30,133 nt of DNA from a virus (lineage: Duplodnaviria; Caudoviricetes): the IMG/VR virus record IMGVR_UViG_3300027563_000029, positions 1 to 30,133 of that record. One strand, 5' to 3'. The stretch's first letter is position 1, and every line of letters begins with the position of its first letter. The notes beneath the pieces are model-generated. The model searched no databases. It saw only the letters and a list, made by a program, of their open reading frames with translations, and had not been told where the DNA came from. Below, piece after piece: positions 6,346-29,080 of the stretch. The position numbers and the translations under genes were made by a program.

Positions 6346-7593
6346 ATGAAAATAAATGACTTAGTAAGAAATGGTGGCGATTACATGAAACGCCTTACCA
6401 CTTTCTTCGATAAAGGTCTTAACAGAAATGGAAGAGTAAATCAATTTATCACTGACATTGGAGTTGTCAGTATAGATGGATTTGAAGTAACTATAGTTCA
6501 AAACAAAAAAGCAAAATCAAAAGAATTTTTCTTTGTTGACATGAAAAGAAATAAGACTTTGGAAGATGAAGCAAAAAATTTGTTTATTACTTTAGCTAAT
6601 GTTGGATTACGTGGCAAAAATAATATTGAATTTACCTGTAACATATACGATCCAGAAAATAAATCTACTGGAATAATGAATAGAGATATATGTTTAGAAA
6701 TAGATGATCTAGTAAAAACAGATGAATTTGGTGGGCAACAGAGGGGTGGTAAGAAAGTTAATATGGGTAATAAGTATGAAGGTGATTTGGCAGAAGATCT
6801 AGTTCTTTATGCTAATGGGCACACACCAAAAAATTATCCAGAACATGTTAATACAATCATATCTACATTACAAAATAAATTAAAATTATCTTTAACTGGC
6901 GCACAACATGTGGGTGGGAAAAATAGTCCCAGACCATTAGTAATTAATAATGGAAGTATTCAAATTTCTGCGGGGGGAGTTAGCACTTTAGATATTGGTG
7001 CCACCCTCACAGATATTACTTTGTATTTTGGAAAACAAAAAACTCCCGTATATCTTTCTGTTAAATTTGGAAGCACTCTATCATTTTTTAATTGTGGTAT
7101 TTCTGGTGGTGGAAAAAATCTTTCATTATTTCCACAAAATGAATTGAAACAAATGAACATACCAGATGATGGTAAAAAATATTTGGATATGTTTGGTATT
7201 GATTATTTGGATTTTCTAGATGTATTTCACAAGTATACTGGTGATAAAGCTTCTTCCACAACAGTCAGTAATCATTCAAGAAATACTACTCTTGATGCTA
7301 ATGGTAAAGCAGCATTAGAAAAACTTTGTGCTTCTGGTATTGGGTATGGATATTGGATGGTTCATTATGATGGAACCCATATGGAATTTTATGAAATTGA
7401 TAGAGAATATATGAATAAAGCTTCTACACTTGTGGGCAACAATGTAGAAATTAATTATGGTGGAAGTTCTGGAAGGGGAAAAAGAATTGACATGTCTTTT
7501 GAAACACAGAAGTATGAGTTTAAATTTAACATCAGAAGTAAATCTGGTGGAGTATTTCCTACACACACTAATGGGGATTATTATAAAAAATGA
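6346..7593 (+). CDS. Hypothetical protein, probable PD-(D/E)xK-like endonuclease
   Basis: ATG 6346; GNKYE helix followed by TLTDITL...VYLSVK resembles the restriction-endonuclease catalytic pattern; AT-rich. Confidence 0.6.
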   Translation: MKINDLVRNGGDYMKRLTTFFDKGLNRNGRVNQFITDIGVVSIDGFEVTIVQNKKAKSKEFFFVDMKRNKTLEDEAKNLFITLANVGLRGKNNIEFTCNIYDPENKSTGIMNRDICLEIDDLVKTDEFGGQQRGGKKVNMGNKYEGDLAEDLVLYANGHTPKNYPEHVNTIISTLQNKLKLSLTGAQHVGGKNSPRPLVINNGSIQISAGGVSTLDIGATLTDITLYFGKQKTPVYLSVKFGSTLSFFNCGISGGGKNLSLFPQNELKQMNIPDDGKKYLDMFGIDYLDFLDVFHKYTGDKASSTTVSNHSRNTTLDANGKAALEKLCASGIGYGYWMVHYDGTHMEFYEIDREYMNKASTLVGNNVEINYGGSSGRGKRIDMSFETQKYEFKFNIRSKSGGVFPTHTNGDYYKK

Positions 7594-8795
7594 GTAAGAA
7601 CACCCACCTAGAACACTTAGAAGATAGTATATTATTTGATGGAGAGCAAGGCGCAAAAGATGCGTTTGCTTTTTTGGATGCTCTTACAAACACATTTAGT
7701 GGAACTCAAACAAGAAATTTTAAAATTACTACTAAGTGGGATGGTGCGCCTGCTATAATATGTGGTATCAATCCTGTAACTAATTTCTTTTTTGTTGGCA
7801 CAAAATCAGTATTTAATAAAGATGGAAAAATTAATTACACTGAAGAAGATATAAAAGTTAATCATGGTCATGCTCCAGGATTGGTTGAGAAATTAAAAGT
7901 AGCATTAAAATATTTTCCTCAACTTGATATTGATGGAATAATCCAGGGCGATTTACTTTTTACTGATGACGCAGTTGAAAAGAAAATTGATGGCGAAGAT
8001 TATTTAACTTTTACTCCAAATACAATTACTTACGCAATTCCAAAAAATTCGGATATGTATGCCAAAGCTAAAAAAGCAAAGATAGGTGTAGTGTTTCACA
8101 CTCGCTATGTTGGAAAAAGTATTGCCGAATCTCACGCAACGTTTGGAGTAGACATAAGTAAATTTAATAAAACTAATGATGTATTTGTTATCAGTGCTGA
8201 AGTTGATACGTTAGGAACAAATTTAATTTTAAATCAAAGAGAAAAACAATCTTTGAATAGAATGAAAACTACTGCGTCTCGTTTGATACCAGGATGTAAA
8301 AAATTTTTAAATGAAATTGCGGTTCTTATTGAAGGTAATGATCAACTAACTGTAGGACCAAGATTAAAAACATACTTTAATTCTTATGTGAGAGAAGGTA
8401 AGAAAATAAATAATGTTCCTCAATTTATTCAAAATTTTAAAAAATATTTTGAAGGGGTGGTAACAAAAGAAGTTGACAAAGCAAAGATGCCTAAAACTAA
8501 AGCAGCTAAACTTAAGAAACTTTATGATGGCATTGAAATAATAGATAATAATATAGACGCATTTAAAAAATTGGTTACGCTATATACAACAATATCAAAC
8601 GCTAAACTTTTCTTTGTTAAAAAATTAGAATCTGCTGATGCTGTGCGAACATTTTTAAAAACAGAACATGGATTTAAAATTACTGCTCCTGAAGGTTTTG
8701 TCGCAATTAAAGATGGTAATGCCACTAAGTTAGTTGACCGTTTGGAATTTAGTGTAGCCAATTTTACAATAGATAAAAACTGGGTTGGTAAATAA
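7590..8795 (+). CDS. Conserved T4-like phage protein (probably DUF6267) with ligase/nucleotidyltransferase motifs
   Basis: N-terminal KNTHLEHLED; TTKWDGAP (KxDG), IQGDLLF, PEGFV, KLVDR. Confidence 0.75.
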   Translation: MSKNTHLEHLEDSILFDGEQGAKDAFAFLDALTNTFSGTQTRNFKITTKWDGAPAIICGINPVTNFFFVGTKSVFNKDGKINYTEEDIKVNHGHAPGLVEKLKVALKYFPQLDIDGIIQGDLLFTDDAVEKKIDGEDYLTFTPNTITYAIPKNSDMYAKAKKAKIGVVFHTRYVGKSIAESHATFGVDISKFNKTNDVFVISAEVDTLGTNLILNQREKQSLNRMKTTASRLIPGCKKFLNEIAVLIEGNDQLTVGPRLKTYFNSYVREGKKINNVPQFIQNFKKYFEGVVTKEVDKAKMPKTKAAKLKKLYDGIEIIDNNIDAFKKLVTLYTTISNAKLFFVKKLESADAVRTFLKTEHGFKITAPEGFVAIKDGNATKLVDRLEFSVANFTIDKNWVGK

Positions 8796-8797
8796 AT

Positions 8798-9349
8798 ATG
8801 AGTAGGATAGTCGTAACATTTGGCAGATTTAATCCTCCTACTATAGGTCATGAAAAATTAATTAATGCTGTCAAGCGTATAGCGAGTGGTGACGACTACC
8901 ATATATACACCAGTCATTCGCAAGATAAAAAGAAAAATCCATTGTCATCTGAGGCAAAGGTTGAATACATGAAAAAAATGTTTCCTTCTCATAAGGATCA
9001 CATCATGTATGATACTTCATTAAAAACAATAATAAATGTTCTTCAAAAATTACAAGGAACGTATACTGATGTTACCTTAGTTGTTGGTAGTGATAGAGTG
9101 CCAGAAATGGAAAAACTCATATTAAAATACAATGGAATTGAATATACATTTAAAAATATAGATGTTAAATCTGCTGGAGAAAGAGACCCAGATGCTGATG
9201 GAGCAGCTGGTATGTCAGCAAGTAAAATGAGAGCAGCTGCCGTGGAAGGAGATACTGCTTCTTTTAGAAAGGGCATACCTACCACATTAGATAATTCACA
9301 TGTTATACAATTAATGAAAGAAGTAAGAGAGGGGTTAGGTATTAAATGA
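8798..9349 (+). CDS. Cytidylyltransferase-like / NMNAT-like HIGH-family nucleotidyltransferase
   Basis: TFGRFNPPTIGH, VVGSDR, MSASKMR. Confidence 0.9.
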   Translation: MSRIVVTFGRFNPPTIGHEKLINAVKRIASGDDYHIYTSHSQDKKKNPLSSEAKVEYMKKMFPSHKDHIMYDTSLKTIINVLQKLQGTYTDVTLVVGSDRVPEMEKLILKYNGIEYTFKNIDVKSAGERDPDADGAAGMSASKMRAAAVEGDTASFRKGIPTTLDNSHVIQLMKEVREGLGIK

Positions 9350-12704: not shown

Positions 12705-13082
12705 ATGGCGGAATTAACCGACGTTAATATACTACTCATAGAACGTATAGAACGTATAGTAGAAATACTGCAAGAGAACTCCATTAAGATGGGGCAACTA
12801 CTTGCAGTTCATAATGAAAAGTTAATGAAGCAAGATCACACTGATGGAGTGTTATTTGAAAAAATAGATAGTGTTCATAGGGAAGTAACCCGTAAGGCAG
12901 ACGAAATAAAAAAGGGTTGCGAAAAAGATATCATGTTAGTAGATACTCGTCTCCGCACAATGGAGAAAAAAATCTGGTCATTATTTGGCGCAATCGCTTT
13001 AGTCTCCTTCCTTGTCAGTGCCCCAGGTCAAAATATTCTAAGGAATATTATTACTCCTGCTCCCACCGCTCAAGTTAAATAA
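12705..13082 (+). CDS. Coiled-coil protein with C-terminal transmembrane helix
   Basis: MGQLLAVHNEKL...RLRTMEKKIWSLFGAIALVSFLV; usual gene upstream of primase. Confidence 0.8.
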   Translation: MAELTDVNILLIERIERIVEILQENSIKMGQLLAVHNEKLMKQDHTDGVLFEKIDSVHREVTRKADEIKKGCEKDIMLVDTRLRTMEKKIWSLFGAIALVSFLVSAPGQNILRNIITPAPTAQVK

Positions 13083-21743: not shown

Positions 21744-22466
21744 TTACTTATTATGTGCTTTTTTATATTGGTCTTGTTTTGATTTCTTCTGTTCTTTTTT
21801 GAGTAGTTTTAAATTCTTCTTATCTAATTCAGCAGCAAAATATAATTGTAATTCATATGGGGTAAGGTCTCTATTCAAGAGCTTCTTGCCCCTTATAAGT
21901 ATCTGTTGAACGATAGGTTTCATCTTTGCTACCATCCATTCAACCAAAGATTTGCCAAGCAGAGCCGCAGCAACAGAAGCAGTAGCAGTGGTGCCAGCAA
22001 GAATAACCTGTTCTTTAGGAGGTATTGGAACTTGCCCGATGAATGGTACTTCAATTACGGGAACTCCAAGATTAGTGTTTACTGGTAGTATCGCATCTTC
22101 ACTTGATTTATTTTCTTGAGGTAATACTTGTTGAATTTGAGGAGGTAGTATAGGTGGTGGACTATCAGGAAGACCTCTAGATTTCTCTTGCTTCTCATCC
22201 TCCTGTGCCTTCTTCTCTGCTCTCACTGCCTCATCAAACTCTTCCTGTGTAGGAACACGGATGACTGGATATGGAACGGCAGTGTTTGGTGCTTGAATAA
22301 TAGGTATTGCCAGACCACGAATGATTGGTTGTTGTGTTTCAACGACAACTGGTGGTGCTAAACTTGGTACAATACTGTTCTGAGCAACACCAACATTAGG
22401 AATTGAATTGGTATTGGTTTGTATGTTTCCTATTCCACTTGCATTGAATGTCGGTATATCACTCAT
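21744..22466 (-). CDS. Pro-rich protein with a C-proximal hydrophobic helix and basic tail
   Basis: P/V/I-rich N-terminal region; VILAGTTATASVAAALLG; last gene of the minus-strand operon. Confidence 0.8.
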   Translation of the reverse strand: MSDIPTFNASGIGNIQTNTNSIPNVGVAQNSIVPSLAPPVVVETQQPIIRGLAIPIIQAPNTAVPYPVIRVPTQEEFDEAVRAEKKAQEDEKQEKSRGLPDSPPPILPPQIQQVLPQENKSSEDAILPVNTNLGVPVIEVPFIGQVPIPPKEQVILAGTTATASVAAALLGKSLVEWMVAKMKPIVQQILIRGKKLLNRDLTPYELQLYFAAELDKKNLKLLKKEQKKSKQDQYKKAHNK

Positions 22467-25246: not shown

Positions 25247-26287
25247 ATGGATTTATTAATAGGTATCTGGGAGAAACTTTTGTTCCTCCCATATATCATC
25301 GGCATTATGATTGTCGGTGGTCTTGTAAAACAATACGGTGTGCTTAACGAAGTATTTGTGGCACTTCGTAAAACATTTAAATCAAATCGTTTAGTTGTTG
25401 CTGCCACTGCTCTTGCTGGTGGTATTCTACCCATTGAAGGAAGAGTGATTATGTCGGCTCCTCTTCTTGATTCCATTGCTTCTGATAAAGCACAATCGCG
25501 TTCTAAGTTTGGTATTGTAGATTATCTTTCTACTCACCACTATTACTGGTGGTCACCACTTGAGAAAACAGTTGTGCTTCCGATGGCAGCATTGGGTATG
25601 TCTTATACCACATTCATGTCACATGCTATTGTTCCTCTTGCTATTGTTTTAACATTTGCTGGAGTATACATCTTTAAGTATGTGAAAGAAACTGATGTAG
25701 AAATCGTTGAAGAAACACGTTCCTTTAGTTGGCAGCGTCTTGCTAAAGGTTGGGGACCGATTGTAGCTACAATGTGGTTTCTAGTGTGCTATGGTGACCC
25801 CGACTATCCTTACCTATTCTCTCTTTGGTTTGGTGGTCTTGCTGCTTACTATTCATTCATCTGTAATGATTGGAAGTGGGGTCGGTATATCAACTGGAAG
25901 TTTGCTGGTCTTGCTGCTTTAGTTCTTGCTCTGGCAGCAGTGTTTGGTGAACTCAAAGCACCTGTCATGGAGTATCTTAAGATTACTTCAGAACAAGGTT
26001 CTGTTGCTCTTGTGTCAGTTTCTGTTGTTGGGTTCTTAGCATCATTTGCTATGGGTTCATCTGGTAAGTATGCTGGTATCGCAACGTTGCTTGCTCAAGC
26101 ATTTGGTGCTGGATACTTGACGTGGTTTCTATGTATTGAGTATGCTGGATACATCATCTCACCAATGCATAAGTGCCTACTGATTGGTCAGCAATACTTT
26201 GGCACTCCTATCAAAACTTATTATAAGGTTCTTGGTATGTTGATTGCCACACTGGTTGGATATGGAGCACTGACGCTGGTTTTTTAG
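25247..26287 (+). CDS. Polytopic membrane protein, DUF401-like / IT-superfamily transporter
   Basis: Many TM segments; GGILPIEG...SAP and C-terminal SPMHKCL...QYF motif. Confidence 0.7.
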   Translation: MDLLIGIWEKLLFLPYIIGIMIVGGLVKQYGVLNEVFVALRKTFKSNRLVVAATALAGGILPIEGRVIMSAPLLDSIASDKAQSRSKFGIVDYLSTHHYYWWSPLEKTVVLPMAALGMSYTTFMSHAIVPLAIVLTFAGVYIFKYVKETDVEIVEETRSFSWQRLAKGWGPIVATMWFLVCYGDPDYPYLFSLWFGGLAAYYSFICNDWKWGRYINWKFAGLAALVLALAAVFGELKAPVMEYLKITSEQGSVALVSVSVVGFLASFAMGSSGKYAGIATLLAQAFGAGYLTWFLCIEYAGYIISPMHKCLLIGQQYFGTPIKTYYKVLGMLIATLVGYGALTLVF

Positions 26288-26290
26288 GGG

Positions 26291-26319
26291 TTGACAAACC
26301 CTCCTCCCTCCTATATAAT
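26291..26319 (+). promoter_or_regulatory. Perfect sigma70 promoter
   Basis: TTGACA-17 nt-TATAAT; the -10 box is flanked by the inverted repeat CCCTCC/GGAGGG. Confidence 0.85.
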
Positions 26320-26615: not shown

Positions 26616-26888
26616 ATGATTTCTCAACTTGTTATTTACACCAAAGACCAATGTGAGTATTGTCGTAAACTCAAGGTAATCCTTGATAGTTTCACGGTTA
26701 AATACACACACTACAACTTGGGGCTTGACTTTGACGAGGAAGCATTCTATAATGAGTTTGGTGAAGGCGCAACATTTCCAAGAGTTACCCTTGATGGTCA
26801 CTTGATGGGAGGATGCACTGAGACTATTGAATATCTAACCAGCATTGGTTGTCTACAAGAACAAAAAGATATGGAGTGTATGGTATGA
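26616..26888 (+). CDS. Glutaredoxin
   Basis: IYTK..CEYC, TFPRV, GGC. Confidence 0.92.
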   Translation: MISQLVIYTKDQCEYCRKLKVILDSFTVKYTHYNLGLDFDEEAFYNEFGEGATFPRVTLDGHLMGGCTETIEYLTSIGCLQEQKDMECMV

Positions 26889-27058
26889 AAACAATCACCG
26901 AAGAAACATTTTGCCACGATTTTGATGACATCATGGAGAAAGTTATTACAGACAAAGAAAGTTTTATCATCACAACAGCGAGTGGATCTAATATTATGCT
27001 GATGCCTTATGATTATTATGAGCGAATACAAGGGGAATTAACTCAGTTGGTAGAGTAG
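26885..27058 (+). CDS. Phd/YefM antitoxin-like small protein
   Basis: MKTITEETF..DFDDIMEKV...FIIT....NIMLMPYDYYE matches the Phd/YefM N-domain pattern; ATGA coupling. Confidence 0.65.
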   Translation: MKTITEETFCHDFDDIMEKVITDKESFIITTASGSNIMLMPYDYYERIQGELTQLVE

Positions 27059-27104: not shown

Positions 27105-27112
27105 TTTAATTT

Positions 27113-27200
27113 GCGAGTGAGACTTGGTAGTCAGAGGAGTTTTATAAACTCTTTCCGCCAGATTAGCGGCTTTGATCTGGTTCAAATCCAGACACTCGTA
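27113..27200 (+). tRNA. Non-canonical tRNA with UAU anticodon and long variable arm (nominal Ile)
   Basis: GCGAGTG/CACTCGT acceptor, A73; T arm TCTGG-TTCAAAT-CCAGA; GAGGAGT-TTTATAA-ACTCTTT anticodon arm; CCGC/GCGG V-arm. Confidence 0.8.
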
Positions 27201-27223
27201 TTTGCTATTTGGAAATAGCAAAT
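27200..27223. repeat. Perfect inverted repeat forming the whole inter-tRNA spacer
   Basis: ATTTGCTATTT-GG-AAATAGCAAAT. Confidence 0.8.
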
Positions 27224-27296
27224 GCTCTTTTAGCTCTCTGGCGAAAGCACCGAACTCATAATTCGGCTAAGGTCAGTTCGATCCTGACAAGGAGCA
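27224..27296 (+). tRNA. tRNA(CAU): elongator Met or Ile2
   Basis: GCTCTTT/AAGGAGC; CT-CAT-AA loop; the paired 1:72 argues against an initiator. Confidence 0.88.
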
Positions 27297-28519: not shown

Positions 28520-28900
28520 TAGTCACGGAGAGACTTTAAAAGAACTGGTGGAGTCAACTTACCCTCTGTATATTATGTTTGGAACTAAGATGAGAATTGT
28601 TGAACAACTCAACAATGGTGATGAAGTAATCACATACTTCTCAGTTGAAATGATTGACAAAAAGTTTTACTACGTGTATAATGATGTCAATCACGGTCCT
28701 TACGAGGACTTTGATGATGCTGTTGACGCAGCATACGAGGATTTAATTCCTCAACCTGTCTCGGAATGACACTAAACGTGCCCTGGTCGGGAACCCCCTC
28801 GATGAGTTTCCAATTTCTCTAAAGAATTGGTGGTGCGGATGGGGTATAACTCCCGCCCAGTTTCTTGCCTCTGGTTAAAGGGCAAGTGGCGAGCCTGAAA
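28520..28900 (+). ncRNA. Large structured RNA, manA-motif-like, interrupted by an ORF
   Basis: Long-range helix 28522-34/28758-70; two tandem H-type pseudoknots; four TAAA-N5-7-TGGY elements; next to tRNAs. The family name is from recall, not a search. Confidence 0.65.
28575..28769 (+). CDS. Small acidic hypothetical protein inside the RNA element
   Basis: ATG at 28575 or 28590; ...HGPYEDFDDAVDAAYE... Confidence 0.65.
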   Translation: MFGTKMRIVEQLNNGDEVITYFSVEMIDKKFYYVYNDVNHGPYEDFDDAVDAAYEDLIPQPVSE

Positions 28901-29007: not shown

Positions 29008-29080
29008 AGGAATGTAGCATAGTGGTTAATGCATTCGGCTGATAACCGAAAGATCGTCAGTTCAAATCTGACCATTCCTA
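29008..29080 (+). tRNA. tRNA-Ile(GAU)
   Basis: AGGAATG/CATTCCT, A73; CT-GAT-AA loop. Confidence 0.94.

Follow-up and report, generated by a model that had tools for sequence, protein, structure and literature searches.

A tRNA(UAU) of phages and bacteria that carries a second, GAU-bearing anticodon-like arm

Introduction

In the case of synthetases that read the anticodon, a single triplet normally fixes the amino acid and the codon alike. The routes by which AUA is decoded rely on lysidine, on agmatidine or on an altered isoleucyl-tRNA synthetase (IleRS). The IleRS of E. coli charges UAU poorly unless its Trp905 is changed, and in Mycoplasma mobile, where this residue is replaced by Arg (Arg865) and tilS has been lost, a tRNA with UAU reads AUA as Ile without lysidine (PMC3575796). 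Which enzyme would charge a tRNA(UAU) carried by a phage, and what would AUA then mean?

This question is raised by an 88-nt gene in the window, by which we mean the whole 30,133-nt stretch of viral DNA analysed here. This stretch is part of a T4-like cyanomyophage genome and holds genes for DNA polymerase, UvsX, a helicase, a primase and NrdA/B; its NrdA is 75-79% identical to those of Synechococcus phages. The gene sits in a tRNA cluster, immediately 5' of a CAU tRNA. An earlier note on this DNA described its product as a class-II-like tRNA with the anticodon UAU and a long variable arm, a mark of Leu, Ser, Tyr and Sec tRNAs, and proposed that it might insert a residue other than Ile at AUA, bypass the host TilS or act as a nuclease decoy.

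Results

Fold and neighbourhood of the tRNA

Inspection, ARAGORN and the minimum free energy (MFE) fold give the following parts, in window coordinates:

27113..27200, + strand: two-arm tRNA(UAU) gene, 88 nt, with 7/5 acceptor/T geometry, A73 at 27200 and no encoded CCA
27113..27119, + strand: 5' strand of the acceptor, pairing with 27193-27199; pair 4:69 is A-U, not the E. coli Ile determinant C4:G69
27120..27133, + strand: one-base connector A27120 (no U8) and short D arm, with a 3-bp stem (27121-23/27130-32) and the loop UUGGUA
27134..27154, + strand: arm 1, the predicted decoding arm, with a stem of up to 7 bp (27134-40/27148-54) and the loop UUUAUAA, which holds U33, the anticodon UAU at 27143-27145 and A37-A38
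27155..27169, + strand: arm 2, anticodon-like, CCGC-CAGATTA-GCGG, with 4 bp and the 7-nt loop CAGAUUA, GAU at 27161-27163; C27156-G27168 equals C29:G41, position 33 is A and position 37 is U
27170..27175, + strand: class-I-like variable loop of 6 unpaired bases 3' of arm 2, of which 27170-72 may pair with 27134-36 in competition with 27152-54
27176..27192, + strand: T arm, 5 bp, loop UUCAAAU, with compensatory changes among close relatives

The cloverleaf elements named in the earlier note (acceptor and T arms, A in place of U8, 3-bp D stem, anticodon stem extendable to 7 bp, UAU, long arm and A73) all lie where it had placed them; what it overlooked is the GAU at the centre of the 7-nt loop of the extra arm and the six unpaired bases that follow this arm. 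The RNA has the canonical 7-bp acceptor, a 5-bp T stem with T-loop consensus, and an anticodon loop of 7 nt that holds U33 and a purine at position 37; the anticodon-loop letters of the family were part of our search patterns. Folding puts the cloverleaf with the extra hairpin at the energy minimum (MFE -30.7 kcal/mol, z -3.4), a result equalled by 1 of 200 shuffles. ARAGORN calls a tRNA-Ile(tat) at 27112-27201; we dropped its 8-bp acceptor because the extra pair is not conserved in every close relative. The Rfam tRNA model RF00005 gave no match to the window RNA at the gathering threshold, nor at E<=10 in a 501-nt stretch.

The surroundings of the gene include the following features:

27224..27296, + strand: neighbouring CAU-anticodon tRNA, with C4:G69, U12:A23 and A73
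29008..29080, + strand: ordinary tRNA-Ile(GAU), the ordinary tRNA of the window that scores highest with the family model R1
26725..26753, + strand: sigma-70-like site upstream of the UAU gene on the same strand, 11/12 consensus bases, a consensus match only
26291-26319, + strand: sigma-70-like site upstream of the UAU gene on the same strand, 12/12 consensus bases, likewise a consensus match only

The nearby GAU and CAU tRNAs of the earlier note are thus both present. From its C4:G69, U12:A23 and A73, rather than from any model classification, the CAU tRNA looks like tRNA-Ile2, and the next downstream tRNA is of the CAU type in 79 of the 104 related loci in which ARAGORN calls the UAU gene. 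Model R1 gives 42 bits to the window tRNA-Ile(GAU), 24.6 and 22.4 bits to the two long-arm Ser tRNAs of the window, and 91 bits to the window RNA, which was itself among the sequences from which R1 was built.

Several other elements lie close by. A 12-pair hairpin (27198-27225) spans the spacer between the UAU and CAU tRNAs and overlaps both gene ends, resembling a terminator or a processing signal. A wcaG RNA motif (Rfam RF01761, 97 bits, 28802-28900) stands just 5' of tRNA-Asn and tRNA-Ile(GAU), a 346-aa hydrophobic transporter-like protein (phrog_14035) is encoded at 25247-26287 within the tRNA region, and a Phd-like antitoxin gene (phrog_375, 26885-27058) lies just 5' of the Ala-UAU-CAU tRNA group, as it does in S-SKS1. 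Contigs from RNA libraries span the UAU gene wholly or partly in three of four runs (X1, X2 and X6; none in X9), but they are possibly DNA-derived, with ends, strand and level unreadable, and we do not count them as evidence of expression.

A widespread and covarying family

An exact 28-mer of the window RNA occurs in at least 120 viral loci (about 160 by estimate). Relatives extend to hundreds of viral contigs, to four cyanophages in culture and to tRNA arrays of bacteria. By BLAST the gene was located in S-SRM01 and S-SKS1, and in more diverged form in S-CRM01, in each case without annotation in the record; the DSL-LC02 member was added by pattern search and model R1, and looser patterns yielded diverse members in further phages. 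A scan of GTDB genomes gave at least 120 loci (about 140 by estimate), from which the parser took 91 different sequences to be UAU long-arm tRNAs. Most of their carriers belong to the Acidobacteriota; alpha-, beta- and gammaproteobacteria and Acidithiobacillus are also represented. Among the matches listed the bacterial members lie mostly in tRNA arrays adjoining ordinary Ile(GAU) and CAU tRNAs. Plasmid searches produced one member (Xanthomonas), and none matched when the window RNA itself was the query. In S-CRM01 a 3' half-copy of another gene subtype (L003:2996-3053) lies directly 3' of the intact gene and downstream of an HNH gene, and looks like a replacement scar. One 284-kb phage contig holds two copies of the two-arm gene (G013:C1:11781-11868 and 117588-117675).

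Every helix holds across 83 family representatives, that is, members below 85% mutual identity: the acceptor pairs covary, with 81-83 of 83 paired at each position, and the weakest pair, 31:39 of arm 1, is kept in 61. In an alignment of the 24 sequences nearest the window in D-arm type, paired cells amount to 91.4%, and of the 26 pairs 25 show changes on both sides, a number reached by none of 500 shuffles and by no slid control. Each of the five helices covaries, in a set that takes in phages and several phyla of bacteria and in counts that treat related sequences as independent. The missing U8 and short D arm of the window copy are a subfamily trait; 52 of the 83 representatives start this region with U8, 46 have a U8 D arm of canonical length, and among 50 canonical-D members A15 stands opposite U48 in 36. 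The UAU two-arm RNA is a real, conserved tRNA-like RNA and not the pseudogene that the earlier note would have read from a lack of covarying homologues.

Arm 2 resembles the anticodon arm of tRNA-Ile(GAU)

Two of our scans (a looser viral pattern and the GTDB scan) fixed letters of arm 2, and are excluded as proof that GAU is conserved. A scan blind to arm 2, whose pattern fixed the UAU loop and the T loop only, returned 120 loci and 95 distinct strings, and 51 distinct UAU long-arm tRNAs were parsed. GAT is central in a 7-nt loop on a 4-bp stem in 39 of these 51 and GAC in three more, followed by 5 or 6 unpaired bases; the identical GAU-loop test on control tRNAs of the same loci was passed by 2/60 Ser, 1/21 Leu and 0/13 Tyr tRNAs (3/94). 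The other nine do not pass, among them two in which the GAU hairpin is shortened. About a dozen further UAU RNAs (counted by eye), mostly of a second group that has no GAU loop, were lost in parsing, which puts the true share of GAU nearer two thirds. In three two-arm members (L317, L360 and L418) the centre of the arm-2 loop reads GAC, which is a Val anticodon; these might be charged with Val, or IleRS might tolerate C36.

The pairing of arm 2 is kept in 321 of 332 cells over the 83 representatives (shuffle mean 204.5, maximum 232). The bacterial Ile determinants are described as C29:G41, A73, G34, A35, U36, A37 and A38 (PMC9976931). C29:G41 is present on arm 2 in 72/83 representatives (27/32 in the blind subset) and on arm 1 in 17/83 (9/32), with control values of 92/510 for non-GAU tRNAs and 9/12 for Ile(GAU) tRNAs. 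By its stem bases alone arm 2 best fits Ile(GAU) among 27 anticodon classes (+2.36, the next being -0.07), on an Ile profile of 12 sequences. The identity bases G34-A35-U36 and A38 are likewise found on arm 2 and not on arm 1 (A38 in 65/83), and A73 is kept in 81/83, the window copy included. Outside the arms, C4:G69 occurs in 40/83 and is missing from the window copy, and U12 is present in 31 of 46 canonical-D members.

Two positions of arm 2 depart from an ordinary anticodon loop. Position 33 is U in only 5/83, and position 37 is a purine in 18/83 and A in 11/83; the U of the window copy leaves no t6A37 site beside GAU. U33 and a purine at 37 matter for decoding. With so few of either, arm 2 appears to be a poor decoding loop. 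The lack of A37 also bears on charging, t6A37 being a strong determinant for IleRS of the bacterial type (PMC9976931).

Arm 2 is tied to UAU: the partner arm 1 has this anticodon in 19/19 two-arm strings checked by eye and in 37/40 structured hits, the remaining three being chance-like. No arm 2 with another anticodon was seen in a scan of 20 of 64 parts, whose pattern stood one register off and which for the most part recovered UAU members again. From arm 2 onward, the 3' half of one member is 80-82% identical over 50 nt to the annotated tRNA-Ile of T5-like phages.

The geometry of arm 2 is that of neither Leu nor Ser tRNAs. Bacterial class II tRNAs (Leu, Ser and Tyr) also have a hairpin between the anticodon and T arms, but in these loci it mostly has a 3-4-nt loop and 1-3 unpaired bases on its 3' side, whereas arm 2 has a loop of 7 nt and is followed by 5-6 unpaired bases; a class I D arm is kept by many two-arm members. 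Five or six unpaired bases precede the T stem in 156/181 UAU long-arm sequences; in the same loci Leu tRNAs have 1-2 in 19/20 and Ser tRNAs mostly 1-2. G73 is found in 53/60 Ser controls, where the window RNA has A73. Of the class-II-like variable arm proposed earlier, then, the long arm exists, and its GAU loop and 3' spacing set it apart from the Leu and Ser type.

Two registers for the arms

The bases behind arm 2 resemble positions 43-48 of class I tRNA, and in the window 27134-36 can pair with either 27152-54 or 27170-72, so that one or the other loop comes to lie seven pairs under the D stem. The second register (27134-36 with 27170-72) is about 5-6 kcal/mol less stable in the nearest-neighbour model. 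In both subfamilies base 26 and the second base behind arm 2 show Watson-Crick covariation (17/23, shuffled 8.6; 22/50, shuffled 14.2), and in the 50 canonical-D members base 26 also forms ordinary G.A or A.A juxtapositions with the base behind arm 1. Positions 25 and 24 gave no covariation in the alternative-register test. A long alternative helix that displaces the D stem was rejected: only 11/83 members form at least 5 bp, and support is confined to positions 26-27.

Host IleRS and TilS

The R-C-W motif is kept in the IleRS of 5/5 carrier genomes tested, and tilS scores above cut-off in 5/5 carrier genomes, the two sets overlapping in three; Synechococcus IleRS is said to keep the Trp, as in tilS-bearing species (PMC3575796). 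We therefore reject the two-arm tRNA as a replacement for TilS in its carriers, although a TilS-independent route, the other side of the bypass once proposed, is part of the reading that we favour. No dedicated partner protein was found among 1125 ORFs in 182 loci, and apart from one cluster (24 bacterial loci, 1 viral) no protein family was common to viral and bacterial loci, making a host enzyme the likely reader of arm 2. In the complex of S. aureus IleRS, solvent reaches C32 and U33 in part, and A35 is the only base read by the anticodon-binding domain (PMC11685878), with which the free position 33 and the occasional GAC of arm 2 would fit.

Related UAU and GAU tRNAs

Short tRNA(UAU) genes that have no arm 2 are present in S-PM2 (L683), S-SCSM1 (L686), S-CREM1 and DSL-LC03, and also lie within 1 kb of a two-arm gene in L032, L034 and L053. 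A further kind consists of ordinary-length phage tRNAs, many of them in jumbo phages, in which CCGAUUA (C33, U37), the same loop as in arm 2, is the sole anticodon loop:

L197, L199-L201, L227 and others of L196-L315: single-arm CCGAUUA tRNAs

These 48 distinct tRNAs have A73 in 48/48 and C29:G41 in 38/48. That a class with U37 in its loop keeps both features suggests, by sequence, that U37 is compatible with Ile identity. One contig carries both the two-arm and the single-arm CCGAUUA kinds (L234 and L385), and no UAU tRNA was seen by eye in five jumbo phages with the single-arm kind.

Other UAU long-arm RNAs form separate groups. The second has odd D regions and a long AAGGGUAA-type insert in which there is no GAU loop (L324, L328, L333, L347, L369, L370, L389, L401 and L413), a similar insert being present in L240 (GAU) and L274 (GUU). 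The third has a CAA-containing hairpin in place of the GAU loop (L335, L337, L349 and L379). A 92-nt 'Ile(aat)' call in L540 was rejected, since it has no GAU arm and looks degenerate.

AUA codons stand at Ile-like sites and are used more by carriers

An alignment of 34 window proteins with 80 loci from related phages gave 47 ATA columns with at least 5 homologues. These columns hold Ile at 0.40, Val at 0.19, Leu at 0.16 and Ser at 0.03, against Ile at 0.60 for ATT, Leu at 0.71 for Leu codons and Ser at 0.53 for Ser codons; pooling of 1174 ATA codons gave Ile at 0.55 and Leu at 0.13. The Leu share is somewhat higher at ATA than at ATT columns (0.16 against 0.08; pooled, 0.13 against 0.08). ATA sites are thus Ile sites that are less conserved than ATT sites, in a test to which low-level ambiguity at AUA is invisible. 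The alignment of AUA with Leu columns that the earlier note had suggested looking for did not emerge, and the recoding of AUA to Leu or Ser is rejected.

Codon usage was taken from three 20-kb stretches per genome. In the four cultured carriers of the two-arm gene ATA makes up 9.5-18.5% of Ile codons and in the window 17.6%, compared to 3.8-6.2% in five phages in which no UAU tRNA was found: two-arm carriers (n=5, including the window) use AUA 2-3 times more than the n=5 phages lacking UAU tRNA (one-sided p 0.006, on small samples and with kinship ignored). In four phages with a short ordinary UAU tRNA the share is 6.6-17.8% (p 0.56 against two-arm carriers). The A-ending bias at four-fold sites overlaps between groups. 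ATA codons concentrate in few genes (9, 14, 10, 7 and 9 each; in the window at 6346-9349, 12705-13082 and 21744-22466), and core replication genes have few.

Discussion

Our analysis places two anticodon-like arms in one tRNA, UAU on the arm with a textbook decoding loop and GAU on an arm with the stem pair of tRNA-Ile. It is probable, in our view, that host IleRS reads the GAU arm and loads Ile, and that the UAU arm decodes AUA as Ile. The GAU and C29:G41 of arm 2 would be the charging signal. During charging, arm 2 would stack under the D stem, a place that it must occupy if IleRS is to reach GAU, with arm 1 looped out; the arms would then exchange for EF-Tu and the ribosome, where arm 2 would lie like a variable arm, unable to decode for want of U33 and a purine at 37, and the UAU of arm 1 would decode AUA. 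The broader prediction, of a natural class of tRNA whose two anticodon arms swap places, GAU for charging by IleRS and UAU for decoding by the ribosome, which would amount to a fourth way to read AUA, seems to us evenly poised between true and false. The gain would be a capacity to read AUA that needs neither TilS nor an altered synthetase, and for this reason the tRNA could travel between hosts on phages and tRNA arrays. A mobile UAU tRNA faces a charging problem in hosts like the carriers tested, which keep the R-C-W motif in their IleRS; the GAU arm with its C29:G41 would solve it.

The tRNA can be compared to several known systems. It shares with the M. mobile tRNA-Ile(UAU) the anticodon and, as predicted here, the reading of AUA as Ile without lysidine, but there the synthetase is altered and tilS lost (PMC3575796), whereas all tested carriers keep Trp and tilS and the RNA has an extra GAU arm. 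The allo-tRNA(UAU) species of Mukai et al. (PMC5389517) resemble it in their long extra arm, in UAU as the commonest anticodon, in mobile contexts and in being often from Acidobacteria; as far as that source describes them, they have 8/4 or 9/3 geometry and Ser/Ala identity, in contrast to the 7/5 geometry, covarying 5-bp T stem and A73 of the two-arm family. Membership in the allo-tRNAs was rejected on the 7/5 geometry and on a search of the allo-tRNA table in the supplement of PMC5389517, which contained none of four arm-2 loop motifs and a fifth once, in an unrelated place. The nematode nev-tRNA-Ile(UAU) also combines UAU with a long arm, but is eukaryotic and leucylated in vitro (PMC4300185), while the two-arm tRNA has an anticodon-like arm, Ile marks and a non-Leu geometry. 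The tRNA-Ile(GAU) of T5-like phages has one arm and reads AUU/AUC; the loop of one record also has C33. Synthetase-bound anticodon mimics are known in mRNAs, for example in the thrS operator of E. coli. These likewise attract a synthetase with an anticodon-like hairpin, but they are regulatory elements of mRNA and not part of a tRNA that is charged.

Some findings count against a charging role for one arm and a decoding role for the other. Arm 2 mostly has no A37, though t6A37 is a strong determinant for IleRS. Arm 2 may be unneeded for charging in these hosts, because short UAU tRNAs exist that do not have it and their carriers use AUA as much. The two-arm RNA is redundant rather than essential, since 5/5 carriers keep tilS and an Ile2-like CAU tRNA apparently adjoins. 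The window copy has no C4:G69, the change of register would cost 5-6 kcal/mol, and on ribosomes of E. coli a UAU that carries no modification reads AUG as well (PMC3575796), so that AUG might be misread.

Among the other explanations, the one that survives best, though we consider it unlikely, is a tRNA-Ile that reads AUA and is recognised for charging by way of the UAU loop, and in which arm 2 would be a second decoding arm for AUU/AUC, an aid to affinity or a bait for a GAU nuclease. The short UAU tRNAs of related cyanophages speak for such charging, and the missing A37 for another role of arm 2, as does the occurrence of CCGAUUA at the ordinary anticodon position of single-arm tRNAs, where such loops may decode. 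The retention of C29:G41 on arm 2 and not on arm 1, however, points to synthetase contact there, the scarcity of U33 disfavours a second decoder, and a nuclease bait would not require the exclusive tie to UAU. Distinctly less probable is a non-translating decoy or sponge for IleRS or for defence enzymes that target tRNA-Ile. Such a role would agree with the inactivity in E. coli of six allo-tRNA(UAU) species made into amber suppressors (PMC5389517), with the TilS and ordinary Ile tRNAs that carriers already own and with the missing U8 of the window subfamily, but not with the textbook decoding loop of arm 1, the higher AUA use of carriers compared to phages lacking UAU tRNA, or the canonical D arm and A15-U48 of many members.

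The charging by LeuRS or SerRS through the long arm that the earlier note raised, by which AUA would be read as Leu or Ser (or by ValRS in the GAC variants), appears very improbable. In its favour, a large variable region and A73 both count among the Leu determinants (PMC9976931), nev-tRNA-Ile(UAU) accepts Leu in vitro (PMC4300185), and the Leu share is slightly raised at ATA columns. These columns are nevertheless far from Leu and Ser columns, and their Val share is up too, as expected at less conserved sites; the arm is not built like those of Leu or Ser tRNAs, G73 is absent, neither enzyme accounts for the conserved GAU and C29:G41, and for the nev-tRNAs the source reports no detectable mistranslation in vivo (PMC4300185). 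A pseudogene, or a relic of the tandem fusion of two tRNA-Ile genes, which the silence of the Rfam tRNA model and the broken 3' half-copy beside the S-CRM01 gene might suggest, can be dismissed in view of compensatory changes in five helices across phages and several bacterial phyla.

Searches of the open full-text literature brought up no account of a tRNA that joins UAU with a GAU arm, and the available text of PMC5370408, PMC6933170, PMC8450103, PMC7590224, PMC8421152 and PMC4717488 holds nothing on the two-arm family. Within that literature the two-anticodon architecture appears to be new. Should the charging model fail, the RNA would still be a new structural variant of tRNA-Ile(UAU). If we are correct to infer charging on one arm and decoding on the other, the synthetase would see one triplet and the ribosome another, and their coupling would be broken by RNA structure alone. 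This would add a route to AUA that needs no modification enzyme and no altered synthetase. It would also offer a scaffold for engineering, in which amino acid and codon could be set independently via two loops and the decoding loop changed without loss of charging. The family is widespread, mostly unannotated and missed by Rfam, and a division of labour between its two arms would explain how an AUA reader carried on phages and mobile tRNA arrays can function in unrelated hosts.
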